Part shown: piece after piece, positions 1 through 49,315 of the stretch | Layout: each line of letters begins with the position of its first letter | How positions within the stretch are numbered: the stretch's first letter is position 1 | IMG/VR virus record: IMGVR_UViG_3300021197_001150 | Coordinates: 1-55,723 of that record | DNA from: a virus | Lineage: Duplodnaviria; Caudoviricetes | DNA: 55,723 nucleotides | Reading direction: 5' to 3' (one strand) | Program-made: the position numbers and the translations under genes | Notes under the pieces: model-generated | What the model saw: only the letters and a program-made list of their open reading frames with translations | The model's database searches: none | What the model was told of the DNA's origin: nothing

Positions 1-1
1 A

Positions 2-607
2 ATGATTAAAGGATTTAAAATCCCAAATACAACGTTCAAAGTTAGAACTGGCGATTCGGTCTTAGATGACGGTTGCAGTTTTGATGAAGGTATGTGGACG
101 ACAATGACAACAGATGACTACTTCAAAGGTAGACGTGTTGTGTTGTTTAGTTTACCGGGTGCGTTTACCCCAACATGTACGTCAACACAATTACCAAGTT
201 TTGAAGAAAACTATAATACTATTAAATCATTAGGTATTGATGAAGTATATTGTTGTTCAGTTAATGACACATTTGTAATGAATGCATGGGCTGAAATACT
301 CAAAGTTAATAATGTAAAAGTTATTCCAGATGGTAGTGGAAACTTTACACGTTACATGGGTATGCTTATTGGAAAGAATCATAGAGGCTTTGGAAACAGA
401 AGTTGGAGATACATGGCTGTTATTAATGACGGCGTTGTAGAACAATGGTGGCAAGAGCCTGGAATCAATAATAACGGTGAAGATGATGATCCGTATATTG
501 AAACAACTCCAGAAAATATGATGGCATACTTAAAAACGTCTTTTGAACCAAAGAACAGACTTGAGCAACAGGCTACATTAAGTTCAGAAGCAGTGGCTGT
601 AGAATAA
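2..607 (+). CDS. Peroxiredoxin (Prx5/redoxin family)
   Basis: VVLFSLPGAFTPTC peroxidatic motif, SVNDTFVMNAW, RSWRY motifs. Confidence 0.92.
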   Translation: MIKGFKIPNTTFKVRTGDSVLDDGCSFDEGMWTTMTTDDYFKGRRVVLFSLPGAFTPTCTSTQLPSFEENYNTIKSLGIDEVYCCSVNDTFVMNAWAEILKVNNVKVIPDGSGNFTRYMGMLIGKNHRGFGNRSWRYMAVINDGVVEQWWQEPGINNNGEDDDPYIETTPENMMAYLKTSFEPKNRLEQQATLSSEAVAVE

Positions 608-1185
608 TGCATCATCAAACAGACACATTACACCCGAGTGAATTTTTTAGTATCTTTCCTACTTGTGTAGGTATGTTTGATCTAACACAATTCCATCCGG
701 CAGAAGAACAAAAAGTATATAACCTAATTAATTTAGACAGTGTAGAAGAAAACGTATTAGAGACACTGCCTTTATTAAAGAAATCAATTAACGATTGTAT
801 CAAAGCATATACAAATGAGTATAGTGTTGAGTATCACGAATTAGCAGATTCAAAATATGAAACTATTGAGTCTGGTAAAGGTATTGAACCAAAAGCATAT
901 GATAACAGTCTGTTTGTTGGTCACTACTTTCCAACTGCACAGAAGGAGAGTATTGATTTGATTGTTGAAGCACCTTTTAACAATCCAATAGCGACTCCAG
1001 TGGACAAATCACTGAGTCTATATACAGCACCAAGCGAGAAGTTTATTATCGACAAAGGTCGATTAATTTTAACTCCTGCACATTTGGTAAGATATATTAC
1101 GCCAAATAAATTGGAACATGCTGTAAACATGATTACATTTACAACTAAGGTCGTAGAACAGGACAAGATTACTTACAATGACTAA
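607..1185 (+). CDS. Degenerate 2OG-Fe(II) oxygenase-like protein (TIGR02466-like fold, iron ligands missing)
   Basis: N-terminal IFPT, NSLFVGHYF and GRLILTPAHLVRYITPN align with the 14635 oxygenase, but the His ligands are replaced. Confidence 0.5.
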   Translation: MHHQTDTLHPSEFFSIFPTCVGMFDLTQFHPAEEQKVYNLINLDSVEENVLETLPLLKKSINDCIKAYTNEYSVEYHELADSKYETIESGKGIEPKAYDNSLFVGHYFPTAQKESIDLIVEAPFNNPIATPVDKSLSLYTAPSEKFIIDKGRLILTPAHLVRYITPNKLEHAVNMITFTTKVVEQDKITYND

Positions 1186-1254
1186 GAAAGAACAAAAGAT
1201 ACTGTTCGGCAGTGTTCTTAGGGTGACCTATACAACTTTTGGTTACATTAGTGT

Positions 1255-1283
1255 TTGACTTTGTTTGCAAATTAGTGTATAAT
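1255..1283 (+). promoter_or_regulatory. Sigma70-type promoter
   Basis: TTGACT-17nt-TATAAT with TG extension. Confidence 0.8.
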
Positions 1284-1355
1284 GTAATAGTTGGTAGAGA
1301 TAGTATCTTTATCAAGACTTGAGTAAACTTTAATTATATATAAGGAGAAGTTATA

Positions 1356-1625
1356 ATGACTAAAACTACAATTCAAGAAAGAGTACTTACTGCACTCGAA
1401 AGCGGTAAAGCACTAACAAGTGCAGATATCAAGAATAGATTTAAGGCTGGTAACCCACAAGCGGTAATCCAAGCACTTAAATTTGCTGGACACCCAGTGT
1501 TCTTGAATTCAAGAAAAAACAGCAGAGGTACGAAAGTATCAAGATACGTAATGGGAACTAAGGCTCCTAAAGCAGTTATCGGTGCTGGTTACAAAGCAAT
1601 GGCAAAAGGTCTATTAGACAACTAA
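1356..1625 (+). CDS. Small basic winged-HTH-like DNA-binding protein
   Basis: RVLTALESGKALTSADIKNRF...AVIQALK pattern; strong SD AAGGAG. Confidence 0.55.
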   Translation: MTKTTIQERVLTALESGKALTSADIKNRFKAGNPQAVIQALKFAGHPVFLNSRKNSRGTKVSRYVMGTKAPKAVIGAGYKAMAKGLLDN

Positions 1626-1644
1626 TAGCATTTGTTATTTTCTT

Positions 1645-1675
1645 AAATAGGCGGCTTTATGTCGCCTATTTTTTT
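1645..1675 (+). terminator. Rho-independent terminator
   Basis: AAATAGGCGGC-loop-GTCGCCTATTT hairpin followed by T-tract. Confidence 0.85.
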
Positions 1676-1728
1676 GACTTTTTAAAACTACTCTAATAAA
1701 TAAGTGTAGTTAAACTACAGAGACTATT

Positions 1729-2106
1729 ATGGCATACTCCGAAAAAGTACTTGACCATTACGAAAATCCACGCAACGTAGGTTCTTTCGACCCAAAACAG
1801 CAAAACATAGGAACAGGTATGGTAGGTGCTCCTGCATGTGGTGATGTAATGAAATTACAAATCCAGGTTGAAGATGACGTTATTGTAGATGCTAAATTTA
1901 AAACTTATGGTTGCGGTAGTGCAATAGCAAGTTCAAGTTTAGTAACACAAATGGTAAAAGGCATGACATTAGATCAAGCATCAGAAGTTAAGAATATGGA
2001 CATTGTAGAAGAACTTGCTTTACCGCCAGTTAAGATACATTGCAGTGTACTTGCCGAAGATGCAATCAAATCAGCAATAAAAGACTACCAGACTAAGACT
2101 AAATAG
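1729..2106 (+). CDS. iscU: Fe-S cluster scaffold IscU
   Basis: MAYSEKVLDHYENPRNVG, GAPACGD, YGCGSA, LPPVKIHC with three conserved Cys. Confidence 0.97.
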   Translation: MAYSEKVLDHYENPRNVGSFDPKQQNIGTGMVGAPACGDVMKLQIQVEDDVIVDAKFKTYGCGSAIASSSLVTQMVKGMTLDQASEVKNMDIVEELALPPVKIHCSVLAEDAIKSAIKDYQTKTK

Positions 2107-2112
2107 ATATAC

Positions 2113-2163
2113 AACGTTCAGCCGAAAAAAGGCCGGAAGTAGGCGCAAAGCCGAAGGAACGCA
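2113..2163 (+). ncRNA. Glutamine riboswitch (glnA RNA motif, class I)
   Basis: P1 CGTTC(2115-2119)/GAACG(2157-2161), P2 GCC/GGC, junction CGGAAGTA, P3 GGC/GCC, GAAG; matches recalled glnA motif consensus; TAAATA promoter at 2100-2105. Confidence 0.85.
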
Positions 2164-2187
2164 CTTAACTGTAAAAAGGAGAGTGTA

Positions 2188-2379
2188 ATGAACAGATACG
2201 ATTACCTACTTAAATCATACCGTGAGCAAAAAATGAGAGAACGCAAGGAGAAAATCCTTATGAAAACTCGCTCTGAAGTAAACGTGTATGGAAATGGTAC
2301 GACTGGGTATACTGTTACAACTGGACCAAATACTGGTAAAGTTTTGAAACATATATCGATTAACCATGATAACAAGTAA
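2188..2379 (+). CDS. Small basic protein under glutamine riboswitch; candidate glutamine synthetase inactivating factor-like
   Basis: SD AGGAG; RKEKILMKTRSEV resembles IF7 RQQSMLSRAAAEI (recalled); function inferred. Confidence 0.5.
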   Translation: MNRYDYLLKSYREQKMRERKEKILMKTRSEVNVYGNGTTGYTVTTGPNTGKVLKHISINHDNK

Positions 2380-2391
2380 CCAAAATAATAC

Positions 2392-2420
2392 TTGACAATA
2401 CGGGTGCAATCTTATATACT
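2392..2420 (+). promoter_or_regulatory. Sigma70-type promoter
   Basis: TTGACA-17nt-TATACT. Confidence 0.85.
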
Positions 2421-2441
2421 ATTCATAACAAAGGAGATGTT

Positions 2442-2603
2442 ATGGAAAATATAAAAAACTGGTTAGTTGCTGAGAAGGAAAGCATTATCGAGTACCAAAA
2501 GAATAGTTGGGAACAAGGTAAAGCACAGTTGGCAGAAAATGGCCAGAGTATATCAGAAGCAGTTGAAAAAGTTTCAAACTTTATTCAATCATCTTTGATG
2601 TAA
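2442..2603 (+). CDS. Hypothetical protein (53 aa, not in ORF track)
   Basis: SD AAGGAG, ATG...TAA; MENIKNWLVAEKESIIEYQKNSWEQGKAQL... Confidence 0.7.
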   Translation: MENIKNWLVAEKESIIEYQKNSWEQGKAQLAENGQSISEAVEKVSNFIQSSLM

Positions 2604-2610
2604 TTCGACT

Positions 2611-2687
2611 GCACCCGTAGCTCATCTGGATAGAGCGCCACTTTGCGGAAGTGGAGGTAATAGGTTCGAGTCCTGTCGGGTGCGCCA
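2611..2687 (+). tRNA. tRNA-Arg(GCG)
   Basis: Cloverleaf: GCACCCG/CGGGTGC acceptor, CCACT-TTGCGGA-AGTGG anticodon arm, TTCGAGT T-loop, A20, encoded CCA. Confidence 0.92.
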
Positions 2688-2715
2688 AATGATAAATAAC
2701 GAGAAGGAAAATTAA

Positions 2716-2743
2716 GCTCAGAACACTGAGCAAGTTTTTTTTT
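2716..2743 (+). terminator. Terminator-like hairpin between tRNA-Arg and asparagine synthetase gene
   Basis: GCTCAG-AACA-CTGAGC followed by AAG and 9 T. Confidence 0.55.
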
Positions 2744-2768
2744 GACAAATAACTCAGAAGGAAAAGAA

Positions 2769-3599
2769 ATGACGCAGTTAATATCCCCAAATAAATTTAC
2801 GAACACAGTTGGCCTTTTAAGGTCATTTTTTTTGGACAAAGGATTCTTAGAAGTCCATACCCAAAACAGACTAAGCATACTTGCCGCATGTGAAGATCCA
2901 TTCAATGTAGCAACATACCAATACGCAGGCAACACTTGGCCATTGCCGCAAACAGGCCAGATGTGGTTAGAACATGAATTATTAAGTAGCCCCGATAGTA
3001 AGGGGTTTTTTTGTGTCTCCACTTCCTATAGACAAGAGCCTAATGCAATACCAGGCAGACATGATATAATATTTCCAATGTTTGAATTTGAGATGCCAGG
3101 TAGCATTGATGATCTTAAAGCAATGGAGTATGAACTATGTGAATACTTAGGCTTTGGTAACATTACAGAAAAGACTTATAGAGACTGGCAAGAGCATTAC
3201 GGACTTGACTGGATCAAAGAGATGGACGCTGAACATGAATTAAAGATGGCGGCAGACTTTGGTCAAACAATGATTACAGACTTTCCAGAGATGACATCAC
3301 CGTTTTGGAATATGAGTAGAAACGATGGCGGCGGCACAAGTAAAAAGATTGACGTTATCTTAGGTGGTATGGAAACTATTGGGTCAGCAGAGCGTTCATG
3401 TGACGTTGACATGATGCGTAATACATTCCACACAATTACAGATGGTGCTTATAGTGAACTACTGTTTAAACTGTTTGGCAAAGAACGTGTAGTAGCAGAA
3501 CTTGAAAAGTTTTTAGAGTTTGACTTCTTTCAAAGAGTAGGCGGTGGTATAGGTATTACACGTATGATCCCGGCATTAGAAAAGATCAATAAGATATAA
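2769..3599 (+). CDS. asnA: Asparagine synthetase A, AsnRS-paralog type (class II aaRS catalytic domain without anticodon-binding domain)
   Basis: LPQTGQMWLE, STSYRQE...RH...FPMFEFE (motif 2), METIGSAER, GGGIGITR (motif 3); no N-terminal OB fold; ATG at 2769 preferred over TTG 2742. Confidence 0.75.
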   Translation: MTQLISPNKFTNTVGLLRSFFLDKGFLEVHTQNRLSILAACEDPFNVATYQYAGNTWPLPQTGQMWLEHELLSSPDSKGFFCVSTSYRQEPNAIPGRHDIIFPMFEFEMPGSIDDLKAMEYELCEYLGFGNITEKTYRDWQEHYGLDWIKEMDAEHELKMAADFGQTMITDFPEMTSPFWNMSRNDGGGTSKKIDVILGGMETIGSAERSCDVDMMRNTFHTITDGAYSELLFKLFGKERVVAELEKFLEFDFFQRVGGGIGITRMIPALEKINKI

Positions 3600-3605
3600 A
3601 ACTAA

Positions 3606-3690
3606 TCTGGGGTGGTGAAATCGGTAAACACGCACGATTGTTTCTCGTGTGACGAAAGTCTTGGAGGTTCGAGTCCTTCCCCCAGAGCCA
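3606..3690 (+). tRNA. Atypical tRNA with Asn anticodon (GTT) and class II long variable arm
   Basis: TCTGGGG/CCCCAGA acceptor, G73, CCA; D-arm GTG/CAC; CACGA-TTGTTTC-TCGTG; variable arm GAC-GAAA-GTC; GGAGG-TTCGAGT-CCTTC. Confidence 0.85.
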
Positions 3691-3716
3691 ACTATTACCT
3701 AATAGATACACACTAT

Positions 3717-3745
3717 TAGACTTAGACATTTTTCTGTGCTATAAT
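3717..3745 (+). promoter_or_regulatory. Sigma70-type promoter (extended -10)
   Basis: TAGACT-17nt-TATAAT preceded by TG. Confidence 0.7.
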
Positions 3746-3772
3746 AATTTAAATATAGCATAAGGAGAAACC

Positions 3773-4837
3773 ATGCCACCACGTAATCATAAGAGTTGGT
3801 TAGCACAACCAAACGTAGAATCAATCAGCAGTTCAGCATATAACGATCCAGAAGTATTTGCACAAGAGCAAGAACGTATCTTTTCAAAGGTATGGGTACC
3901 TATGTGTCACAAATCGGAAATGCCTGAGCCAGGTAATTTTAGAACAACACAAATTGCAGGAGTTAATGTTATTGCAGTCAATAACGGTGACTCAATTAAG
4001 TCTTATTTGAATACAGGTAAGTTTAATACACCTTCAGGAACAATGACACGAGTAGAGTTTTTAATGGACGACTATACTCCGTTACCTACAGAAGTAAAAC
4101 ACGGAGGTATGGTATGGACAACACTTGATCCTAATCCTACGCAGAGTGTAGAAGAATGGACAGCAGGAGCATTTGATTGTATTGCAGATGCTATTGACAC
4201 AGAAGAAATGGAAGTGTTCCATTACCACAAAGCAATCATAGATACAAACTACAAACTATGGCATGATACTAACAGTGAATTCTATCATGACTTCATGCAC
4301 TACTTTAATCGTGTAAGTGGATTCAACGATGAATACTTTGCACGTAAGAATATACCTTTTGACAACGGTCATGTAAACGTAAGCAGTTTCACAGTAAACT
4401 ATGAGGAGTATGACGGCTTCGAAGATAGAGGTGAACTGTCCTTTCCTAATCTACCACCCAACCAATGGTATATGGTAGACTTGTTTCCCGGATTTAATTT
4501 TAATCTACGTGGAAGTGCATATCGTTCAGACTCAGTAACTCCATTAGGTCCTAACCGTGTACTGATTGAGTTTAGGGGATACGGACTAAAAAAAGATACT
4601 AAAGAAGAACGTTTGACACGAATCAAACATCACAACAGTATATGGGGACCATTTGGTCGCAACCTCCATGAGGATCTAATTGGAGTTGCTGGGCAAGGAA
4701 CAACTATGCGTGAAGGTACAGAGAACAGACGTGTACTGCATGGTAGACATGAGAACGGTACTATACATGATGAAGTTGGTATGCGCCATTACTATACCGA
4801 ATGGGGTAAGTATTTGGATATTAATCCTTATCAATAA
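3773..4837 (+). CDS. msmA: Methanesulfonate monooxygenase hydroxylase alpha subunit-like protein lacking the Rieske cluster
   Basis: EVFHYHKAIIDTNYKLWHDTNSEFYHDFMHYFNR and WGPFGRNLHEDL are near-identical to recalled MsmA; CxH/CxxH Rieske ligands absent. Confidence 0.85.
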   Translation: MPPRNHKSWLAQPNVESISSSAYNDPEVFAQEQERIFSKVWVPMCHKSEMPEPGNFRTTQIAGVNVIAVNNGDSIKSYLNTGKFNTPSGTMTRVEFLMDDYTPLPTEVKHGGMVWTTLDPNPTQSVEEWTAGAFDCIADAIDTEEMEVFHYHKAIIDTNYKLWHDTNSEFYHDFMHYFNRVSGFNDEYFARKNIPFDNGHVNVSSFTVNYEEYDGFEDRGELSFPNLPPNQWYMVDLFPGFNFNLRGSAYRSDSVTPLGPNRVLIEFRGYGLKKDTKEERLTRIKHHNSIWGPFGRNLHEDLIGVAGQGTTMREGTENRRVLHGRHENGTIHDEVGMRHYYTEWGKYLDINPYQ

Positions 4838-4852
4838 TTGAACTAATTCCGG

Positions 4853-4881
4853 TTGACAACTGTATACTTTGACTGTATATT
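4853..4881 (+). promoter_or_regulatory. Sigma70-type promoter
   Basis: TTGACA-17nt-TATATT with TG extension. Confidence 0.65.
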
Positions 4882-4909
4882 AAATATAATAACAGTTAAG
4901 GACGACTCT

Positions 4910-5086
4910 ATGTGGAAAGACAAACATTTTGAAATGCCTCCAGAAGAGGATAGAGCAGACAAGTTCTCATTCTTTGTATCTATGGTCGGAATAACTATTA
5001 CTTGTATTATGACACAATCTCCTACATTAATGGTAATTGTAGGATTAGGATTGTATATCGGTATTAGGTGGTCAAGAGCATTATGA
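4910..5086 (+). CDS. Small membrane protein
   Basis: ATG 4910 with AAGGA SD; two hydrophobic stretches. Confidence 0.6.
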   Translation: MWKDKHFEMPPEEDRADKFSFFVSMVGITITCIMTQSPTLMVIVGLGLYIGIRWSRAL

Positions 5087-5340
5087 TAGATAAATCAAAT
5101 ATGACTCCACAAGAATTGTTTGAATACAAACTTAGATGGAAGCCTGGTGTAACTGTTGACGTACACAGTGATCTACATATACAATGTAAAGATTGGTGCA
5201 GACGTAACATGCAACGTTGGGAATGGGGTATGGACACATGGACATACGTATATTCGCACTCTTATCATTTTGAAACACAAGAGAAAGCGGATGAATTTAA
5301 AACTGAATTTAGAGAATGGGTTGACAAAGGTAAAACATGA
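5083..5340 (+). CDS. Hypothetical phage protein
   Basis: ORF coupled to neighbours by ATGA overlap. Confidence 0.7.
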   Translation: MIDKSNMTPQELFEYKLRWKPGVTVDVHSDLHIQCKDWCRRNMQRWEWGMDTWTYVYSHSYHFETQEKADEFKTEFREWVDKGKT

Positions 5341-5447
5341 AAATTAAATTAGAAGTTGAACTGGATACTGAAAAAGATCAAGACAACAACTTGTTAGAAG
5401 AGATATTAGATCTTATTGAACGTATTAGAGAAAATGAAGGGGATTAA
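5337..5447 (+). CDS. Hypothetical 36-aa protein (not in ORF track)
   Basis: MKIKLEVELDTEKDQDNNLLEEILDLIERIRENEGD; ATGA overlap with upstream gene. Confidence 0.6.
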   Translation: MKIKLEVELDTEKDQDNNLLEEILDLIERIRENEGD

Positions 5448-5449
5448 TT

Positions 5450-5623
5450 TTGTGGGATATTTGGTGCAAGGCCATAGGAACAAAAGCATATGAAGATAAC
5501 AATAAGGCTGACAGAGTGGCAATTATACGCACCGCGTGGGTGTTGCTACACATTCTTACTTGCCTTGCTATTATCTTAAATGCAATAGCAAATCATGGTA
5601 CAAAGTTATTTGGATTTGGATAA
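5450..5623 (+). CDS. Small membrane protein (57 aa, not in ORF track)
   Basis: TTG start; WDIWCKAIGTKAY...ADRVAIIRT followed by a hydrophobic helix. Confidence 0.6.
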   Translation: MWDIWCKAIGTKAYEDNNKADRVAIIRTAWVLLHILTCLAIILNAIANHGTKLFGFG

Positions 5624-5631
5624 AAAAGAGG

Positions 5632-5660
5632 TTGACTTTTTGGTATTTAGATCATATAAT
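5632..5660 (+). promoter_or_regulatory. Sigma70-type promoter
   Basis: TTGACT-17nt-TATAAT. Confidence 0.8.
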
Positions 5661-5697
5661 AGTAACATAATTAGGCAAATGAACAGAGGCAAATAAT

Positions 5698-7038
5698 ATG
5701 AGAACACAACCACAGGACGTAATTTACAAACTTGAACAGCACAACGGTAGGTTAGACAAAGAAACTATCGTGTTCAGTGCTATGGGTGAAGGACTTGATG
5801 AGTTCTTCGAAGGTGTAACAATGGCACTTGACCCACTTGTAACATTTGGCGTTAAACAAGTTCCAGAGAAAGCAGAGAATGAAGTGCTATCAGCACAAGG
5901 TTGTGCTTGGCCAGTATTCAAAGAACTTGCAGATAAACTAATTGCAAGAGAACTTACAGGACATGCGGCACGTGATGCTATTGAACTTGTAATGAGTTCA
6001 GCAACGGCAGATCAGTGGAATGGTTTTTATCGTAGGATCCTTATTAAAGATTTACGTTGTGGAGTAAGTGAAAAGACAGTAAACAAAGTTGCTAAAAGAT
6101 TTAACATGAAGGGCGAAACAAAATATGTTATCCCTACATTCACTTGTGCATTAGCACACGACTCTGCCAATCATGAAAAGAAGATGTCAGGCAAGAAACA
6201 AATTGAAGTTAAACTTGATGGCGTAAGAGTTATTACAATTATACAAGGTGACAAAGTAGAAATGTTTAGTCGTAATGGTAAGCAGTTTCATAACTTTGAT
6301 CACATTATTGAAGAAATTAAAACAGTACTCAAAGATAAGCCTGCACCATATGACCTTGTGTTAGACGGTGAGGTAATGAGTGCTAACTTCCAAGACTTAA
6401 TGAAACAGGTACATAGAAAGAGTGGTGGTACAGCCAAAGATGCAGTATTGCATTTGTTTGACACTATCCCATTATCCGATTTCAAACAAGGTGGTTGGGA
6501 CAAACCACAGTCAACAAGAAGTGCAATTACTAAACATTGGGTAGAAAGCAACCAGGACGTTTTAAAGCACGTACAAGCACTTGAGTGGGAAGATGTAGAC
6601 TTAGACACTCCCGAAGGCCAAGAACGCTTTGTAGAGCTTAATAAGACGGCTGTAGACGGTGGTTATGAAGGTGTAATGATCAAAGACATTGATGCACCCT
6701 ACGAATGCAAACGTACACATGCTTGGTTAAAGGCAAAACCATTTATTGAGATTACACTAAAAGTCGTTGACGTCGAGGAAGGCACTGGACGTAATGCGGG
6801 AAGATTAGGTGCCGTAATAGTAGAAGGAGAAGATGATGGATACAATTATCACCTTAACTGTGGGAGCGGCTTCACTGATAGTCAACGTGATGAGTACTGG
6901 ACTGCACGTGATAGTCTCATTGGTCAGTTAATTGAAATTAGAGCAGACGCTCGAACTAAGTCGCAAGACTCGGAAACGTATAGTTTACGTTTCCCAAGAT
7001 TTAAGTCGTTTCGTGAGTATAAAGGAGAAAAAGCATGA
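5698..7038 (+). CDS. ATP-dependent DNA ligase
   Basis: EVKLDGVR (motif I), LDGEV, YEGVMIK, WLKAK, LRFPRF. Confidence 0.95.
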   Translation: MRTQPQDVIYKLEQHNGRLDKETIVFSAMGEGLDEFFEGVTMALDPLVTFGVKQVPEKAENEVLSAQGCAWPVFKELADKLIARELTGHAARDAIELVMSSATADQWNGFYRRILIKDLRCGVSEKTVNKVAKRFNMKGETKYVIPTFTCALAHDSANHEKKMSGKKQIEVKLDGVRVITIIQGDKVEMFSRNGKQFHNFDHIIEEIKTVLKDKPAPYDLVLDGEVMSANFQDLMKQVHRKSGGTAKDAVLHLFDTIPLSDFKQGGWDKPQSTRSAITKHWVESNQDVLKHVQALEWEDVDLDTPEGQERFVELNKTAVDGGYEGVMIKDIDAPYECKRTHAWLKAKPFIEITLKVVDVEEGTGRNAGRLGAVIVEGEDDGYNYHLNCGSGFTDSQRDEYWTARDSLIGQLIEIRADARTKSQDSETYSLRFPRFKSFREYKGEKA

Positions 7039-7415
7039 GACAGTTTGTAGTAGATAGTTGGAACAGTGTTATGGATATGGAACACAATCCGTTAAAGAAC
7101 ATTCCTGACTTGATGGTTAGACACATGGTTATGCAGATTTTAGCATTCATGTGGTCAAGTGTATTTGCTATTATGGTTATTAATAGTATTACGGCATTTA
7201 TGTATAGTGCCATTGGACACGTAATTTTTGTTGCCGCAGTTGTTATTACTGTTGCTACATTTAAAGTTGCAGAAACCAACCCAGGTGCATTTAGGTTTAA
7301 GAATGGGTATCATTCACATGGTAGAGGTAGAAATTATACTATCTATCGTGACAAGAATGGTATTGCACATAAGGTGCCATTGGATCCAAATGATCCTGGT
7401 GGGGAACACGAATAG
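7035..7415 (+). CDS. Membrane protein, hypothetical
   Basis: Two TM segments; ATGA coupling. Confidence 0.7.
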   Translation: MRQFVVDSWNSVMDMEHNPLKNIPDLMVRHMVMQILAFMWSSVFAIMVINSITAFMYSAIGHVIFVAAVVITVATFKVAETNPGAFRFKNGYHSHGRGRNYTIYRDKNGIAHKVPLDPNDPGGEHE

Positions 7416-7423
7416 GAGTAAGT

Positions 7424-7654
7424 ATGAAAATAGTAAACAAAGATCCGGGTGATGGTCACTTTGCGGTCAGTATTGTAAAAAGTATTTTTAGATTTGTAGC
7501 ATCAGGTTTACTTGCCTGGGCAGGATATAACTTGTGGACAGGTGAAATGATGTATACAGATTTTTTTGTAACTGAAGTAGGGTTTCTAATGATGTTGTCA
7601 GGTATAATGTTATTCCTTGCTGAAGTACTTGGTATTGTAGAGGAGATAGTATAA
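7424..7654 (+). CDS. Membrane protein, hypothetical
   Basis: Two TM segments, ends AEVLGIVEEIV; SD AGGAG. Confidence 0.7.
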   Translation: MKIVNKDPGDGHFAVSIVKSIFRFVASGLLAWAGYNLWTGEMMYTDFFVTEVGFLMMLSGIMLFLAEVLGIVEEIV

Positions 7655-7842
7655 TGAAAGAAGGTCCAATGAAGCAACACGTTGAACGTGACACTGAAGG
7701 TATGGTAAAAGCAGAGTATACCACATACACAATGAAAGATGGTATGTTCATCAAAGAAACTTCAGTACGTAACTTCCAAAAGAATGGTGACTATCACGAT
7801 TCGTTTTATAGCGATCCATTAGTTAGCCTTAAACCAGAGTAG
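7654..7842 (+). CDS. Hypothetical protein
   Basis: TAATG-coupled ORF with GAGGAG upstream. Confidence 0.65.
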   Translation: MKEGPMKQHVERDTEGMVKAEYTTYTMKDGMFIKETSVRNFQKNGDYHDSFYSDPLVSLKPE

Positions 7843-7846
7843 TCGT

Positions 7847-8071
7847 ATGAGAGTGGACGACAATACATGGCCCGACATCTCATTTGCCCCCAAAATCAAT
7901 CCTTGGAAATCCTTTGTTCAAGAGATTTGGATGAAGCATAAAGATGAGATCATGGAGTGGGAACAACGCCAAGTTGATTACACTTTACAAGATTATTATC
8001 TACAACATAAATGGTTTTTACGAAGACTGTTTAGAGCCGAAGGTGGTAAAGTAAACACCGAACAAGAATAG
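7847..8071 (+). CDS. Hypothetical protein
   Basis: In-operon ORF. Confidence 0.65.
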   Translation: MRVDDNTWPDISFAPKINPWKSFVQEIWMKHKDEIMEWEQRQVDYTLQDYYLQHKWFLRRLFRAEGGKVNTEQE

Positions 8072-8141
8072 TTATAAGCCATTTTTGCTTGACTTTTAAT
8101 TATTAGACTATATAATATACAAAACGTGAGGAGATTTACAA

Positions 8142-9446
8142 ATGGCATTGACCGCCCTAAAAGGAAAAACATCGAGAAGGAAGAAGCCTGTTCGCAGACA
8201 AAAGAGTGTTACAGGTGAGGTGTTGTGGACGGAAGAAGAACTAAAGGACTGCACTCCAGAGAACTTCGGCAGAAAGTCAACCAGAGCATTAGACTATTAT
8301 CGATTAGAATGTAAAGGAACAGACTTTAAACGTTGGACTCTTGAATACATGGAGAAGAGCGATAAGTGGCGTCAGTCTGTAGACAGTTTTAAAAAGGTTC
8401 CTGAAAACCGCTTTAACAGTACACTTGGTGGTATGTGTAGAATGATACAGTTAGGTAGACCTAACGTCAATGAAGCATACAATAAGTATTGGGAAAGTTT
8501 ACCAGGTACAATGGGTACTCCTAAACCATTGAATGTTAGTATTGATGTTTGGCTCGGTGAACTGCAATTTAAAGCACAAGCATTCGCAACTGAAGAAGCA
8601 GAAGCAAAAGCAGAAGAAGAAAAAAAGAAAAAAGCACACCAGCCTACTATACAAGAACGTATCTGGGCACAGATGTGTATTATGGACGACAAGCCACAGG
8701 GTTGGTTAGATGAATGGTCTGATGATCCATTGAAGTTTAACCCTAAAGGTTTTGACTTTAAAAAGCATTTTTATGAATTTAAAGTAACACAGGCTCATGC
8801 AAGAAAAATAAAAGAGTGTTACTTGCCTGAGATTAAAGAACTTAATGAAGTACTTGATCCACCTAAACTACCTGCAGACGCAACCGATCAAGAAAAGGAT
8901 TGGGCTTCGCAGTTAAAAGAAGGTTATGCAATCTTTACTAAGAATGATATTAAGAAGAAACTACAGGCACTGAATGCGTATATGGGTGCATTAGACGTAG
9001 TTATCGAAACTGCTAAGGCCACACGTAAGCCTCGTAAGAAACGTTCAATTAGCAAAGAGAAACTAATTGCTAAACTTAAATTTGCACTTAACGATAGTAA
9101 GTTTGCATTAGCAAGTATCAACCCTATTGAGATTCCAGGCTGTAACGAACTTTGGGTGTTTAATACTAAGACACGTAAACTTGGAAAATATATTGCTAAA
9201 ACTATTGACCCATTAGGACAAGAACGTGAAGGTACTGGCCTAAGTATAAAAGGAACTACTATTACACAGTTCAATGAAGAAACCAGCATACAAAAGACTT
9301 TACGTAAGCCAGACGAAAAACTAAAAGAGTTTAAAGACACTGGTAAACGTAAGTTACCTGAATTCTTAGATACTATTAATGCAGTGGATATTAAACTTAA
9401 TGGTAGGATTAATCCGGACACTATACTTCTAAAGGCAGTTAGATAA
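8142..9446 (+). CDS. Hypothetical basic phage protein (434 aa)
   Basis: Long ORF, SD GAGGAG, upstream TTGACT...TATAAT promoter (8089-8116). Confidence 0.8.
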   Translation: MALTALKGKTSRRKKPVRRQKSVTGEVLWTEEELKDCTPENFGRKSTRALDYYRLECKGTDFKRWTLEYMEKSDKWRQSVDSFKKVPENRFNSTLGGMCRMIQLGRPNVNEAYNKYWESLPGTMGTPKPLNVSIDVWLGELQFKAQAFATEEAEAKAEEEKKKKAHQPTIQERIWAQMCIMDDKPQGWLDEWSDDPLKFNPKGFDFKKHFYEFKVTQAHARKIKECYLPEIKELNEVLDPPKLPADATDQEKDWASQLKEGYAIFTKNDIKKKLQALNAYMGALDVVIETAKATRKPRKKRSISKEKLIAKLKFALNDSKFALASINPIEIPGCNELWVFNTKTRKLGKYIAKTIDPLGQEREGTGLSIKGTTITQFNEETSIQKTLRKPDEKLKEFKDTGKRKLPEFLDTINAVDIKLNGRINPDTILLKAVR

Positions 9447-9454
9447 ATACTATT

Positions 9455-10582
9455 ATGCAATATAGTGACATAGATAATAACGAAATTACAAAGATAAAAC
9501 AGGGGCTAATCGAACTTGGCAATAGTATTGAGATCATTGCCGGTAGAGTTGTACCTGTTCAAAGAATTGAAGATCGCCAACTGACTGGTAATGCTATTCA
9601 GGGTGGTAAGATTACACAATTCAGAAGTACTGGTATTACTGACCAAGCAAACAAAACTGTTTTGCTTGTAGATAATACAGGTGTTACTACAGACACTATA
9701 TCTGTAAAGACACTTGAAGGTGACGTTGCACTTAATGGCAACATGAAAGTTGATGGACACCTTGAAGTAAACAGCCTACACGTAAATGAATTAACTGCTG
9801 ACGTTAGACAAGAGCGAAGCAGTTCATTAACATTTGATACACAAAATGGTAACTCACCAATAGGCAAAGGCTTAGTCTGGCAAGACGGCGACAATGCTAA
9901 ATCATTTATACTACAAACAAATCCAGATAGACTCTGGAGTAGTAACACTGTCGACTTGCATAGAGAAGCAAACTACTCAATTGATAACGTACCTGTAATT
10001 ACTGCAACATCATTAGGTGAAACAGTTCTAAGTTCTAAACTTAGATCAGTTGGCAGACTACAAGGATTAACTGTTGACGGAGACTTAAACATAGATGATT
10101 TTGTTTTCTGGGACAGTGGAGCAATGCGTATGTCAATTGGAACAGAATCACCGAACGGACAATTAAGTATTAGTAGTGAAGTTACAGAATTTATTGTTGA
10201 ACCAGAATATGAAACAGTAAAAGTTGGAACTTACAGTACAAGTGAATTAAAAATTATCACTGATAATACAACACGGATTGGAATATCACCATACGGACAT
10301 GTAACAATGGGTTCAGCAGAAAACACTGAAACTAAGATTAGCATGTTTGGTAAAGTAGGTATTGGCGTAGCAAATCCAAGTGCTAACTTTGAAGTAGCAG
10401 GTCCTATTAAGTTTGAAGGGAAGAAGTTTGCAACAGGTAATGACGCTCCACAAGACGGATTATGGAAAACAGGCGACATTATTTGGAACAATACACCAGA
10501 AGCGGGTGGTTGGATAGGCTGGATTTGTGTACGCGAAGGAACCCCAGGACTATGGAAACCATTCGGTAATATCGAAGGGTAG
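9455..10582 (+). CDS. Putative virion structural/tail fiber-like protein
   Basis: beta-rich, GKVGIGVANPSANFEVAG fiber motif, C-terminal GDIIWN...GWICV...PGLWKPFG; GATAAATA late promoter. Confidence 0.65.
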   Translation: MQYSDIDNNEITKIKQGLIELGNSIEIIAGRVVPVQRIEDRQLTGNAIQGGKITQFRSTGITDQANKTVLLVDNTGVTTDTISVKTLEGDVALNGNMKVDGHLEVNSLHVNELTADVRQERSSSLTFDTQNGNSPIGKGLVWQDGDNAKSFILQTNPDRLWSSNTVDLHREANYSIDNVPVITATSLGETVLSSKLRSVGRLQGLTVDGDLNIDDFVFWDSGAMRMSIGTESPNGQLSISSEVTEFIVEPEYETVKVGTYSTSELKIITDNTTRIGISPYGHVTMGSAENTETKISMFGKVGIGVANPSANFEVAGPIKFEGKKFATGNDAPQDGLWKTGDIIWNNTPEAGGWIGWICVREGTPGLWKPFGNIEG

Positions 10583-10585
10583 TCC

Positions 10586-10885
10586 ATGAAAAATAATAAA
10601 TTAAAAAGACAGGTTAAAGCCTGGAGTTGGATAGGTAAGGTTCTACCTTTAAGTACCCTGTTCGCAGTAGTATTAATAATTGTATTTGATTTTCAAACAG
10701 CATTAGAATGGACCATTGGTAGTATTGCTATAGCATTTGGCGTAGTAGCATTTACTTGGTGGTGGTGGGTAATTTACGCAGTTAAAGAACTTAACCAGTT
10801 ACTATCAACTACAACAGAACGTTTTGAGCAAGTGATGAAAGACATCAGAGATCTTAAAGACGACTTCCGTAAAAATAAAAAATAA
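10586..10885 (+). CDS. Membrane protein with C-terminal coiled coil
   Basis: Two TM helices then heptad pattern. Confidence 0.65.
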   Translation: MKNNKLKRQVKAWSWIGKVLPLSTLFAVVLIIVFDFQTALEWTIGSIAIAFGVVAFTWWWWVIYAVKELNQLLSTTTERFEQVMKDIRDLKDDFRKNKK

Positions 10886-10887
10886 TA

Positions 10888-13800
10888 TTACGCTATTACT
10901 GCGTTTTGAACTGCAATTGGCAACCAACCGTTAGCACCGTATATCAATGTAACACTATCGTGTACAGCATCAAATGTAATAGTTGTTCCATTTGCAAGTG
11001 TAGTTGGAGTAACTGTTGCATCACCGCCATCTACTACCATACTAATAATTTTCATTTGTCCTAATGCGCCGTTTGCCAGTGTGTATGCATCTGCGCCAGT
11101 AGTTGTAATTTCTGTGTGTAGTGTTGTTAGGTTAATTACACCTGGTCCACTAATAGTTTGTCTACTACCAGTAAAGGCACCTGCCGCTGTTAACGGACCA
11201 GATATAATTACTTCACCTGAAATTGATCCAGGTTCAATAGTAATATCTCCAGCCGCTCCAGCACCCTGTTGTATCTTAGTTGTTGATACATAATGAGAAG
11301 TACTTACAGATATTGGTCTGTCAACTGAGATCCAATTTTGAGTGTCATCAAAGTAGAACATTCTCGTACCGTCTTCGTTGTTAAACTCTAATCTGTTATT
11401 GTTATTTGTAATGGTTCCTGCTAAAGTGGCACCATCATCACTGTAAAATGCTAAATCACCATTGATCTGAGTATCAACTAAACTTAATGATCCATCTACC
11501 TGTTGACGATAAATTTCCCAAGTATTAGTATGTGTTCTATAGAATGTGTATTCATATATGTTTAATGAACTTATTGCACTTGAAACAGCACCTAAATCTG
11601 TTGGTGTCTGTGTAACACCATTAACTTCTATCGTAGGAATATAAGCAGTACCACCTTGTAGGATATGTATTCTTACACGTCTTACTCTTTGTGTGCTTGT
11701 TTCAAGTCCTGTAAAGTTTGCAACAAGAGCACCACTTGGTGCGTTCCAATAAACGTTCGGTGTGTCAGTTGTATCAATTTCATATGTTCCAGTTGATACG
11801 TTTGTGTACAACATTTTTTCTTGGGCACCTGGACTTGAACGTAATTCTCTTTCAAGTGTTACTGGACTTGCTATTGCAAAAGGTTGTGCCGCATTGGCTA
11901 CATTAGAAAGTTTACCATTAACGTCTACACCCACACCACTATTAAATGCAATGCTTGTATCTGATACAATCGTTAATGCACCTGTTCTGTTTATGTTTGC
12001 ATTTACTTCACCAACTATCTGATTGGCCGTAGCATCAATTAACTGTGATGTACCGTTTGTTCCGTATGCATCACTCATCATCTTGAAGCCTGTGATGTTT
12101 CCGTTAGTAATAGTACCTATGGTGTCAGTAAAGTTACCTGCTTCAAGATTAGCAGTTGTAACCTGAGCATTATTAACTTCACCTATGACAGTTCCGTTGT
12201 TGTCAATTATAGTAGTTGAGTCTGGTCCATATACTGAACCTGTCAAGTCTCCTACAAACCCAGCAGTGCCTTGAATAACTGTGTTTACAGGACTGTTGAT
12301 GTTAATACCGTTTACTGCTGAGAGTGTTAAGGCTTCGCCAGCATCAATAAGTGTATTACCAAAATCACTGTAATAGTATGCGTCATTTCCTGAATTTACA
12401 GTTAGATCGTAAGGATTAGAAGACTCTATATTAAGAGTATTACCAGATACTATAGAAATAGTACCTGCACCTAATGTAAATGCATCAGTACCTCTGTTAA
12501 TGTTAGCATCAACAGTACCATATATAATTCCGTTAATAGCATCAACAAGTAATGTACTATCGTCTGAATAAAGTGAACCAGTTAAGTCGCCATCAAATGT
12601 TCCTTGTAGATGTCCGTGGAACGTATTAGCATAAACATTATCATATGGCTCACTGCCTCTACCAATGTCATTTACTCCTAAAGGAGCAAGGTCACGTGTT
12701 CTTACTGTACCAGTACCGCTTTCAGTTCTTAGTACAGGATTATCTGTAATCTCAATTATTTCATAGTATGCTTGAAGTTCAAGTGTAATAGTTCCTGTGT
12801 TACCTGAGATAGTGTACACAACTCTATATTGACCACCACTGTTATCTGCTTCATTGTATAGGTTTGAGAATTCGTATGGTACACCTGCTACACCTGAAAC
12901 TGTATCAAGTGTTGTCCAAGTAACACCGTTGAATCTTTGTATACTTGCCGATACTGCTGTTGCGGCTGTTCCACTATCTAATTGGTAACCTACTGTATAT
13001 TGCAGTACACCTTTAGATGGTTTACTGTTAAATGTAAATGTCTTTGTAATAGTGTTAGATGTAATTTCTTTTTGATCTATTGCAAGTCTAAGTGCATTGC
13101 CTACTGTACCAGTACCTAAAAATTCTGATGTTGGAGAAACAAATCCATCTTCAGTTGTATTACTTGTAATGTTTCCAACTTCAATATCTTGTATGTAAAG
13201 TTGATTAGTAGTAATAGCATTTCTTTTTGTTACAGTGTGTAATGTGTCTATTTCCGCTACTGCAAAAGAACCAATTTCAATTTCGTTTGCGTTCTTTCTT
13301 GTTAGTTGTATTCCGCCTGCCGCTGATAATTCAACATGAGTTGTTGCGGCATTTACATCTGTTAATTCTATCTTTGTTGTACCTGGTGGTACATCTAAAC
13401 TGTAGTTAACGTCAATCATCATAATGTCGTCGCCAGCAGTAGTTGTTATAGTACCGCCTTGTCCAACGTTGTCATGTGATCCGTAATAAAATGTTGTTGG
13501 TGATGAATCGTTTAATTCAATTTTTACTTGTCGAGTAGTTGCACTTGTAAATCCAAGTTTGTAATTGGCCTTAGTTACTGATACATCATCAAGCAAGTAA
13601 GTTACACCTGTTGTATATTCTTCTCCGCTAATAGCACCACTTACAGCACCGTCGGCTGTATTACTAAACACAAGTGGACTTAGGTATCCGCCATATGATG
13701 CATTAGTGGCATCACTTTGATCGAATGTATATGTACTACCTCTTGCTAAGGTAAGTGGTTTTTGTTCTACACCATCAAGGTAGTAAGCACCCATTGCCAA

Positions 13801-48794: not shown

Positions 48795-49315
48795 AATTAA
48801 AATTAGTATTACACCCAAATGAATGGTTAGAGAAACAAGTTAAGCCTTTTGATTTTAATAGTCTTGATGCCAAAGATGTTGAGAAACAAATGATTGATAT
48901 TATGGATAAGAATGCAGGAGTTGGTCTAAGTGCTAACCAAGTTGGTCTTGATGGACAAGTTTTTATTTTAAAGCCACACGAAATGGAAGGCTTTGATGAA
49001 CCGTTTGCACTATTCAATCCCGAAGTTGTTAAAATAGATGATAGGGTTATTGAAGGTGAAGAAGGCTGTTTAAGTTATCCAGGTTTATACTTTAAAGTTA
49101 AACGTGCAACTGCTTTGGTTGCCAAGTATCTTGACTCTAACGGCAAAGAGTGTACAATAGAGTTTGTAGGTTATAATGCAAGGATCTTTCAACATGAATA
49201 TGATCATTTACAAGGCATAAACTTTACAGATAGAGTAAGTAAACTTAGATTAGATATGGCTAAGAAGAAACAACAAAAATTATTTAAAAAATATAAGGTG
49301 GATGTTAAATGGTAG
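48791..49315 (+). CDS. def: Peptide deformylase
   Basis: GVGLSANQVG, EGCLS, QHEYDHLQG. Confidence 0.95.
   Translation: MKLKLVLHPNEWLEKQVKPFDFNSLDAKDVEKQMIDIMDKNAGVGLSANQVGLDGQVFILKPHEMEGFDEPFALFNPEVVKIDDRVIEGEEGCLSYPGLYFKVKRATALVAKYLDSNGKECTIEFVGYNARIFQHEYDHLQGINFTDRVSKLRLDMAKKKQQKLFKKYKVDVKW

Follow-up and report, generated by a model that had tools for sequence, protein, structure and literature searches.

The oxidation of dimethylsulfide yields methanesulfonate as a major product. The large (alpha) subunit of methanesulfonate monooxygenase is MsmA, and the long-spacer Rieske motif CXH-X26-CXXH has been described as the marker of the MsmA family (PMC4433239). Electrons in Rieske oxygenases pass from the cluster of an alpha subunit, through a bridging carboxylate, to the iron of the neighboring one; for example, the iron of terephthalate dioxygenase (TPADO) lies 12 Å from the neighbor's cluster versus 42 Å from its own (PMC9060491). 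A natural separation of the two sites is known from NdmCDE, in which a Rieske-less oxygenase works with a reductase bearing the split-off Rieske domain (Summers et al., 2013, described in PMC4408171). MsmA-like proteins without the Cys/His motif are also in print, including that of phage HMO-2011, many "MsmA" sequences of the GOS and virome collections, and one of the two proteins annotated as MsmA in the SAR116 strain IMCC1322 (Henriques and De Marco, 2015; PMC4433239), and msmA of HMO-2011 has been cited as an auxiliary gene of the sulfur cycle (PMC4928673). The subject here is a gene of this kind in a 55,723-nucleotide stretch of Caudoviricetes DNA (IMG/VR record IMGVR_UViG_3300021197_001150; hereafter the window), the product of which has the iron site of MsmA and lacks the Rieske site. 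The missing cluster has most likely not simply been lost but is supplied by a host partner protein, which in SAR116 bacteria has undergone the opposite loss.

The phage protein is MsmA-like, as the original prediction held, and its best full-length relatives are the true MsmA proteins of msmABCD/msmEFGH clusters. It is 54–59% identical to these proteins overall and about 72% identical in the catalytic domain, with identical iron-site motifs and the same N-terminus (MPxRNH). It differs from them in the absence of CXH-X26-CXXH, being about 44–50 residues shorter in this region, where the 73-residue segment NVCPH...CMFH...RLRCEV of true MsmA (414–423 aa) corresponds to 29 residues that include the Cys/His-free YLNTGKFNTPSGTMTRVEFLMDDYTPL. 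Among the features of a Rieske oxygenase alpha subunit, the Ring_hydroxyl_A catalytic fold is present and the Rieske C-x-H ... C-x-x-H site is absent, with no Pfam match to the Rieske domain PF00355 in the 354 residues. A profile alignment to TPADO (E = 7e-55) sets Glu169, His172, His176, and Asp301 on Asp207, His210, His215, and Asp356, which in that enzyme are the bridging carboxylate (Asp207) and the iron ligands (PMC9060491), and by this alignment the 2-His-1-carboxylate ligands and the bridging carboxylate appear to be kept. The best solved relatives, found by Foldseek with E values of about 1e-21 and TM scores of about 0.75 (7c8z and 7q05), are NagG salicylate 5-hydroxylase (7C8Z) and the TPADO alpha subunit (7Q04/7Q05), both from alpha3-beta3 enzymes with inter-subunit Rieske-to-iron transfer via a bridging carboxylate; these are only 17–20% identical to the phage protein, possess their own Rieske cluster, and space the histidine ligands as H-x4-H versus H-x3-H in the phage protein. 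A search of PHROGs gave nothing for the phage protein (best E 0.11).

An AlphaFold2 model of the phage protein (34-row alignment; pLDDT 86, pTM 0.87) retains a reduced beta domain at the N-terminus, with strands at residues 42–46, 55–61, 64–70, 75–79, 88–90, 106–109, and 113–116 (pLDDT mostly 88–97) and a sole weak stretch at residues 91–100 (pLDDT 65), within the linker that replaces the cluster-binding segment. Matches from NCBIfam and the PDB sequences similarly place residues ∼17–83 on the initial strands of Rieske alpha subunits, ending just short of the C-x-H position. The missing Rieske ligands, the intact iron site, the Cys/His-free linker, and the retained flanking strands had all been predicted originally and are confirmed by Pfam, the alignments to MsmA and TPADO, and the model. 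The description "cleanly deleted" is overstated, as part of the 26-residue spacer persists in the form of PSG(N/T), and a "CP" relic of CPH remains in the linker of most chromosomal copies, though not in the window copy. The absence of the motif itself had already been published as a bare fact.

Cellular relatives were obtained by a scan of one genome per prokaryote species, from which the best 80 of 160 were kept. At 58 of these loci the protein is long (409–450 aa, most 414–423), has CPH-X26-CMFH, and is 54–59% identical to the phage protein, the sources being Hyphomicrobiaceae, Filomicrobium, Hansschlegelia, Methylovirgula, and others. The remaining 22 loci encode Rieske-less proteins of 352–364 aa (hereafter short forms, together with the phage proteins) with 73–81% identity. 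Five of these 22 (L003, L004, L018, L021, and L024) have no msm neighbors and resemble phage DNA binned into metagenome-assembled genomes (MAGs). The other 17 are chromosomal and lie in msm clusters, mostly in single-cell genomes and MAGs of SAR116/Puniceispirillum, some on contigs of 196–607 kb and one in a single-contig genome of 2.75 Mb (G106). The host gene order starts with genes for an MsmE-like binding protein and a transporter (minus strand), a fusion protein of about 800 aa, MsmB (PF00866), and a 133-aa HcaC-like Rieske ferredoxin (PF00355; MsmC) beside MsmB, and continues with a 274-aa protein, the short gene, a divergent LysR gene (minus strand), TauE, PanB, and FTHFS (formate-tetrahydrofolate ligase). 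In true msm clusters (L025, L037, L042, and L076), MsmA occupies the slot of the fusion, with a substrate-binding protein, MsmB, and MsmC alongside. The host orthologs of the phage gene thus share with true msmA a cluster containing msmE-like transport genes, MsmB, MsmC, and TauE, whereas the phage gene stands outside any msmABCD operon and the msmA slot of SAR116 holds the fusion.

The fusion lies on the same locus as the short gene in 13 of the 17 chromosomal cases and elsewhere in the genome in three (L008, L013, and L014); for L006, a single MAG, it was not found in either the locus or the rest of the genome. When 192 species genomes of the order were searched with a true MsmA query, 17 matched at E ≤ 1e-40; the short form occurs in 15 of these and the fusion also in 13 of the 15 (E ≤ 1e-40), one further genome holds just a fragment of the fusion, located at the end of a contig, and G005 has true MsmA without the short form. 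No complete stand-alone MsmA was found beside the short form in the 17 matching genomes. Two genomes, G117 and G122, depart from the usual order in that the fusion is on the strand opposite to the short gene, ∼12 kb away, and G117 has two complete sets of short gene and fusion on different contigs (C16 and C45). In one SAR116 lineage, seen in L163 (G106:C1, 9912–14502) and also in L005 and L022, the Rieske ferredoxin gene is separated from the 274-aa gene by an insertion of three open reading frames (ORFs; 962, 249, and 312 aa).

The fusion of SAR116 (788–860 aa) consists of the MsmA Rieske domain (PF00355), a catalytic remnant, and then Pyr_redox_2 and Reductase_C domains. Its C-terminal half is a ferredoxin-NAD reductase of the HcaD/AndAa type (E = 1e-85), and its N-terminal ∼390 residues are MsmA-like, with a Rieske region nearly identical to that of true MsmA, including CPH-X26-CMFH. 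In the catalytic remnant, E169, H172, and H176 are substituted or deleted and the D301 segment is lost, in 11 of 11 complete fusions and also in G106. Divergence is lowest in the G106 fusion, which has 60% identity to a true MsmA, and even there the iron-site positions are destroyed; EFYHDFMHYHN is changed to KFHQDFM----, and a 21-residue deletion takes out GRNLHEDL... The reverse pattern, with the iron site kept and the Rieske motif gone, occurs in all 78 full-length viral and all 17 chromosomal short forms. The two paralogs therefore degenerate complementarily, one retaining the cluster and the other the iron site. In closely related SAR116 pairs, the ratio of nonsynonymous to synonymous substitutions (dN/dS) is 0.015–0.066 for the chromosomal short gene, 0.02–0.04 for the Rieske part of the fusion, 0.03–0.09 for its reductase, and 0.19–0.22 for the dead catalytic remnant, which is relaxed ∼5- to 10-fold yet constrained, as expected for a scaffold. 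A constrained, cluster-bearing paralog with a dead site makes sense only if it serves the iron of another subunit, and the short form is the only MsmA-type iron site found in the genomes concerned. One fusion, from a MAG labeled Magnetovibrio (L012, 4911–7484; 857 aa), has an extra insert of ∼55 residues in the catalytic remnant and a long branch (0.85).

What is new is the complementary host partner of Rieske-less MsmA and, with it, a concrete testable mechanism. The 2015 study mentions neither a fusion nor iron-site loss in the motif-bearing protein (PMC4433239), the main text of PMC9038755 does not mention methanesulfonate, monooxygenase, Rieske, or dioxygenase, and a literature search with most subscription journals outside its reach returned no description of a complementary pair or split MsmA, only the 2015 remark on the absent motif. 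The original prediction had also raised the possibility that cellular Rieske-less homologs were already characterized; such homologs are in print but uncharacterized (PMC4433239).

The relationships were placed by a quick IQ-TREE analysis (LG+G4) of 90 rows, comprising 27 phage sequences, 5 from MAGs without msm context, 17 chromosomal short forms, 24 MsmA, 11 fusion N-termini, and 6 outgroups. All 49 short forms make up one clade (support 100) beside the MsmA clade, and this fits a single origin of the Rieske deletion. The fusion N-termini are likewise monophyletic (support 100); their long-stemmed clade falls within that of true MsmA, next to L037, the only Puniceispirillales true MsmA. The fusion is thus the decayed descendant of the resident msmA, with the short form as a separate deep lineage. 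On a decidedly tentative reading, the split of the alpha subunit may have been driven by phage–host gene traffic, since the short form does not derive from the resident SAR116 msmA. In the quick tree, the SAR116 chromosomal clade (support 80) falls among phage clades with HMO-2011 basal. A direction of phage–host transfer had been considered from this nesting and was dropped, as a constrained tree with the 32 phage-type rows as one clade has a higher likelihood (+20 log-likelihood units, p-AU 0.71); no claim is made as to the donor or the order of events.

A complex of the phage protein with residues 1–395 of the L009 fusion was folded and gave a median ipSAE of 0.80, versus 0.00 for the best of three controls; the 0.80 mark is reached by 58 of 80 solved complexes and by 2 of 110 mismatched pairs. 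The runs share at least 48% of contacts, and the pLDDT of the partner is at least 75. Fusion residues 88–97 and 121–124, which hold the CPH and CMFH ligands, contact phage residues 165, 171–172, 174–175, and 303–327, and the predicted interface would thus have a productive Rieske-to-iron orientation. The residues of this predicted interface are more conserved than the rest of the protein in viral (0.93 vs. 0.88), chromosomal (0.90 vs. 0.82), and true MsmA rows (0.77 vs. 0.65).

The phages themselves do not provide the partners where these were sought. The window has no match to PF00866, PF00355, or PF00111, no tblastn match to the host MsmB, MsmC, or reductase, and no homolog of the 274-aa protein, in agreement with the earlier claim that no beta subunit or reductase lies nearby. 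Similarly, no gene for MsmB, MsmC, the reductase, or the 274-aa protein was found within the fetched flanks of 85 phage-type loci (the best 80 of at least 599 IMG/VR contigs encoding relatives, plus the 5 MAG contigs without msm context), and no Rieske domain scored above the cut-off in the complete HMO-2011 genome, a 316-kb record with an estimated completeness of 91%, or three other phage records.

The 80 viral loci, 82–98% identical to the window gene, and their phage neighbors bear out the view that the gene is phage-borne. Neighbors of the window gene (the phrog_29758 gene, which resembles an aminoacyl-tRNA synthetase, and/or a ligase) occur at 31 of the 85 phage-type loci, one of them on the 316-kb record; those of HMO-2011 (gp58, gp63, lysozyme, and terminase) occur at 11; and neither set is present at 43, many of which are short contigs. 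The short gene is therefore carried on at least two phage backbones, and its distribution suggests exchange between unrelated phage types. A single gene clade (support 97) mixes HMO-2011-type and window myovirus-type contexts (L104, L128, and L157 vs. L085 and L089). The HMO-2011 homolog itself (gp61, "methanesulfonate monooxygenase," NC_021864) is 70.8% identical and likewise Rieske-less; it differs in its setting, as gp61 lies between structural and lysis genes of a 55-kb phage, whereas the window comes from a much larger myovirus, of which it is a fragment, and its msmA-like gene adjoins tRNA-Asn and the synthetase-like gene.

The viral copies are strongly conserved. An intact full-length ORF is present at 78 of the 80 viral loci, with the other two cut, and the C-x-H...C-x-x-H motif is found in none of the 78. 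Glu169, His172, His176, and Asp301 are kept in 78/78 viral, 17/17 chromosomal, and 47/47 true MsmA rows (142 in total). The mean identity to the window protein over residues 106–354 is 0.93, 0.90, and 0.72 in these three groups, respectively. The linker (residues 78–105) is the least conserved part, with identities of 0.54, 0.21, and 0.25; outside it, the corresponding values are 0.88, 0.82, and 0.65. When the window gene was paired with each of 10 viral copies, dN/dS came to 0.04–0.22 in the eight pairs with unsaturated dS. The gene is thus under strong purifying selection and is not the pseudogene under relaxed selection that had been allowed for originally.

On balance, it is slightly more likely than not that the phage contributes the catalytic part of a methanesulfonate monooxygenase made of two pieces and relies on the host for the Rieske-bearing alpha piece with its reductase, MsmB, and MsmC. 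In this mechanism, the ancestral MsmA of SAR116 would have been replaced by two complementary paralogs within one msm cluster. One of them (alpha-R) has kept the MsmA Rieske domain, lost all iron-site residues, and become fused to the ferredoxin-NAD reductase; the other (alpha-C, the form that the phage gene encodes) has lost the cluster and kept the mononuclear iron site of the hydroxylase. As electron transfer in these enzymes runs between subunits, a hetero-oligomer of alpha-R and alpha-C with MsmB and MsmC could match the MsmA homotrimer. During infection, phage alpha-C would assemble with host alpha-R-reductase, MsmB, and MsmC, so that the conversion of methanesulfonate to sulfite and formaldehyde might be sustained or raised, and the products could feed sulfur and one-carbon pools, the host cluster including TauE, FTHFS, and PanB. 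Among the four mechanisms offered originally, hetero-oligomerization with host subunits is accordingly the one favored, with the twist that the host subunit would be an MsmA paralog dedicated to the Rieske function, with a dead catalytic site and a reductase fused to it. An "iron-sparing" variant is not needed as an explanation, and the phage FdxA proposed as electron donor is not present in the window, which has no PF00111 match.

Several points weigh against this two-piece mechanism. The assembly of alpha-C with the fusion and the identity of the substrate are both read from sequence and a model, and the complex score may stem from likeness to the solved trimers of Rieske oxygenases; it indicates likeness and a compatible interface, not binding. 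The two-chain model is also silent on stoichiometry, and a three-membered ring cannot alternate R and C. In addition, every proven methanesulfonate grower has a long-spacer Rieske MsmA, and the Rieske-less proteins were left out of the bona fide set (Henriques and De Marco, PMC4433239). The window is a fragment, so partner genes might lie elsewhere in the phage genome, though the 91%-complete relative has no Rieske domain. On the host side, most genomes are incomplete single-cell genomes or MAGs, and the absence of a third, intact MsmA is therefore to be read as "not found" and not as proven; G108 holds two MsmA-like fragments at contig ends that resist classification. Finally, host MsmC could feed the iron site directly, without alpha-R.

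This last possibility is the strongest of the alternatives, although its probability is low: a free Rieske ferredoxin (MsmC) or another small host donor would dock where the loops were lost, and the fusion would serve only as the reductase of MsmC. The 133-aa MsmC is present beside MsmB in every msm cluster, its partner reductase domain is the C-terminal part of the fusion, and canonical systems use MsmC too, so that the phage protein would meet it in the host; yet this scheme leaves unexplained why the fusion has an MsmA-type Rieske domain with the 26-residue spacer, at a dN/dS of 0.02–0.04, next to a destroyed iron site, and the predicted fold sets that domain on the phage iron site. Slightly less probable again is a working oxygenase piece that acts on another substrate (a C1/C2 sulfonate or a methylated compound) or has altered chemistry. 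The short forms are known from sequence alone and the proven methanesulfonate degraders all have a Rieske-bearing MsmA (PMC4433239), the 962-, 249-, and 312-aa ORFs of G106 lie between MsmC and the short gene, and msmA has been reported close to dmsABC in SAR116 (PMC8547437). Against a different substrate stand the 0.72 identity of the catalytic domain to true MsmA, the identical long motifs (WHDTNSEFYHDFMHY and GPFGRNLHEDLIGV), and the position of the host copy beside an MsmE-like binding protein, TauE, FTHFS, and PanB, as in true msm clusters. Improbable is a decoy or dominant negative, also foreseen originally, which would replace host alpha-C or bind alpha-R and so shut down or redirect methanesulfonate oxidation or the reductase; the predicted binding to the host Rieske piece and the lack of any other component in the window, phage-type loci, and phage records searched would suit it, but a decoy has no need of an active site, and E169 (the bridging Glu), the three ligand positions H172, H176, and D301, and their neighbors are kept in all 78 viral copies, within a catalytic domain that as a whole is under strong purifying selection and about 90% identical to the host copy. 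The decay of a captured msmA without function, for which only the absence of the defining cofactor site speaks, is already refuted by the selection data (dN/dS 0.04–0.22), the intact frames, and the spread of the gene over at least 599 contigs and two or more backbones.

The closest precedent for a split oxygenase would be NdmCDE, the N7-demethylase of Pseudomonas putida CBB5, which likewise pairs an iron-only oxygenase subunit with a Rieske-carrying reductase; in the present case, the latter is found in host genomes and not in the phage. The "unusual design" ascribed to the gene originally has to be weighed against this precedent, as described in PMC4408171. The two systems differ in origin, the short form and the fusion being descendants of MsmA, whereas NdmCDE belongs with NdmA/B; of the Ndm proteins, NdmA was compared with the family profile and gave just a weak match (E = 2.6e-10) over its N-terminal part. 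They also differ in that the MsmA-derived Rieske piece still carries a degenerate catalytic domain and the oxygenase piece keeps vestigial Rieske strands. Because both halves retain vestiges of the lost domain, the MsmA pair looks like a product of duplication and complementary decay and not of a clean domain split. NdmD is described as comprising two [2Fe-2S] clusters together with an FMN and an NADH domain (PMC4408171), whereas the reductase of the SAR116 fusion is of the HcaD/glutathione-reductase type, and the SAR116 system in addition keeps a beta subunit and a separate Rieske ferredoxin, with one piece carried by phages. The glutathione S-transferase (GST)-like NdmE is needed for NdmCDE assembly; there is no GST-like gene among the 10 neighbors scanned in L009, where the 274-aa protein is present. 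Another 14 SAR116 loci encode homologs of this protein, L076 has a relative with 28% identity, and no match was obtained in Pfam, NCBIfam, or the PDB sequences; a role as an assembly factor in the manner of NdmE is pure conjecture.

Viral msmA has so far either been included among the auxiliary genes of the sulfur cycle or been set aside as not bona fide for want of the Rieske site, and both views will need revising if the enzyme is indeed in two pieces. The viral gene would then probably work, though solely in hosts able to provide the Rieske-reductase piece, and would be tied to host range. What surveys based on the CXH-X26-CXXH marker score in SAR116 would be the partner with the dead catalytic site. 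The pair would further represent a second, independent natural case in which the Rieske site and the iron site reside on different polypeptides; with both vestigial halves still present, it would be at an intermediate stage and may be useful for studies of inter-subunit electron transfer. Oxygenase iron-site subunits are prone to oxidative self-inactivation, and this could be why a phage would carry the alpha-C piece only. A more far-reaching and decidedly tentative proposal is that the SAR116 oxygenase is naturally subfunctionalized, one alpha paralog serving solely for electron delivery and the other solely for catalysis, and that phages of unrelated architecture each took only the catalytic module as a replaceable wear part, as with cyanophage psbA, so that HMO-2011-type phages and ∼300-kb myoviruses might keep sulfite and C1 units from methanesulfonate flowing during infection. 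SAR116 and phages of the HMO-2011 type are described as ranking among the surface ocean's most abundant bacteria and viruses (PMC4928673, PMC9038755). The position of msmA near dmsABC in SAR116 has also been reported (PMC8547437).

Features of the phage gene and its surroundings (positions in the window unless a locus is named)
Feature	Position	Strand	Basis or remark
Rieske-less MsmA-type oxygenase alpha subunit (alpha-C), 354 aa + stop	3773..4837	+	ORF; PF00848 only
Catalytic mononuclear-iron domain PF00848, residues 144–348	4202..4816	+	Pfam, E 2.1e-7, 31.5 bits vs. cut-off 24.9
Vestigial Rieske-domain beta strands, residues ∼40–116, without cluster-binding loops	3890..4120	+	AlphaFold2 model, alignments
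Linker, residues 78–105, in place of the CPH-X26-CMFH segment of true MsmA	4004..4087	+	Alignments; without Cys/His in the window copy
E169-F-Y-H172-D-F-M-H176, predicted bridging carboxylate and two His iron ligands	4277..4300	+	Alignment to TPADO
H299-E300-D301 (NLHEDL motif), Asp301 (4673–4675) the predicted carboxylate iron ligand	4667..4675	+	Alignment to TPADO D356
Promoter-like site TAGACT-17-TATAAT, 10/12, TG-extended	3717–3745	+	Consensus match only, no proof of function
Shine-Dalgarno-like AAGGAG	3762–3767	+	5 nt before ATG; consensus match only
tRNA-Asn(GTT)	3606..3690	+	ARAGORN; immediately 5' of the short msmA-like gene
Class-II aminoacyl-tRNA-synthetase-like core, 285 aa	2742–3599	+	phrog_29758, E 1e-127; flanked by tRNA-Arg and tRNA-Asn
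tRNA-Arg	2611–2687		5' of the synthetase-like gene
ClpA-like AAA+ ATPase	49309–51558	+	phrog_4871, E 3e-243
Conserved 274-aa protein	L009 8921–9745	+	Between Rieske ferredoxin and short msmA

The promoter and Shine-Dalgarno sequence that had been assigned to the gene are present as patterns, but both are consensus matches only, and promoter-like sites number 18 in 3.4 kb versus 11.8 ± 3.8 in shuffles. Two metatranscriptome libraries (X10 and X16) contain 0.71–0.77 of the gene's sampled words, and their contigs cover 30 of 30 bins of window positions 1–12000 at depths like those of a DNA run; DNA carry-over is possible, and contigs cannot show transcription. An oligo-dT run (X17) has pieces at 90–95% likeness only.

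The window record has a CheckV completeness estimate of 15% and encodes baseplate-wedge and tail-fiber proteins, a DNA ligase, the ClpA-like ATPase, and two tRNA genes (ARAGORN). The ATPase is 40–45% identical to genes of jumbo phages (Phosso, Atu_ph07, and PA5oct), and its nearest phage relatives include genomes of 287–490 kb. Judging by the baseplate and tail genes, the size of the phages with related ATPases, and the tRNAs, the window is a piece of a large myovirus and not of an HMO-2011-type phage, and the kinship of the ATPase with jumbo phages supports a very large genome for the window phage. The synthetase-like gene accompanies the msmA-like gene at many viral loci, and its core shares 64–68% identity with the "tRNA ligase" found in P-SSM7 and P-SSM2, two phages of Prochlorococcus, and has weak matches to asparaginyl- and aspartyl-tRNA synthetases (E = 3e-7). 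An ORF of 2231 aa lies within the tail/baseplate region (window 19895–26590, plus strand).

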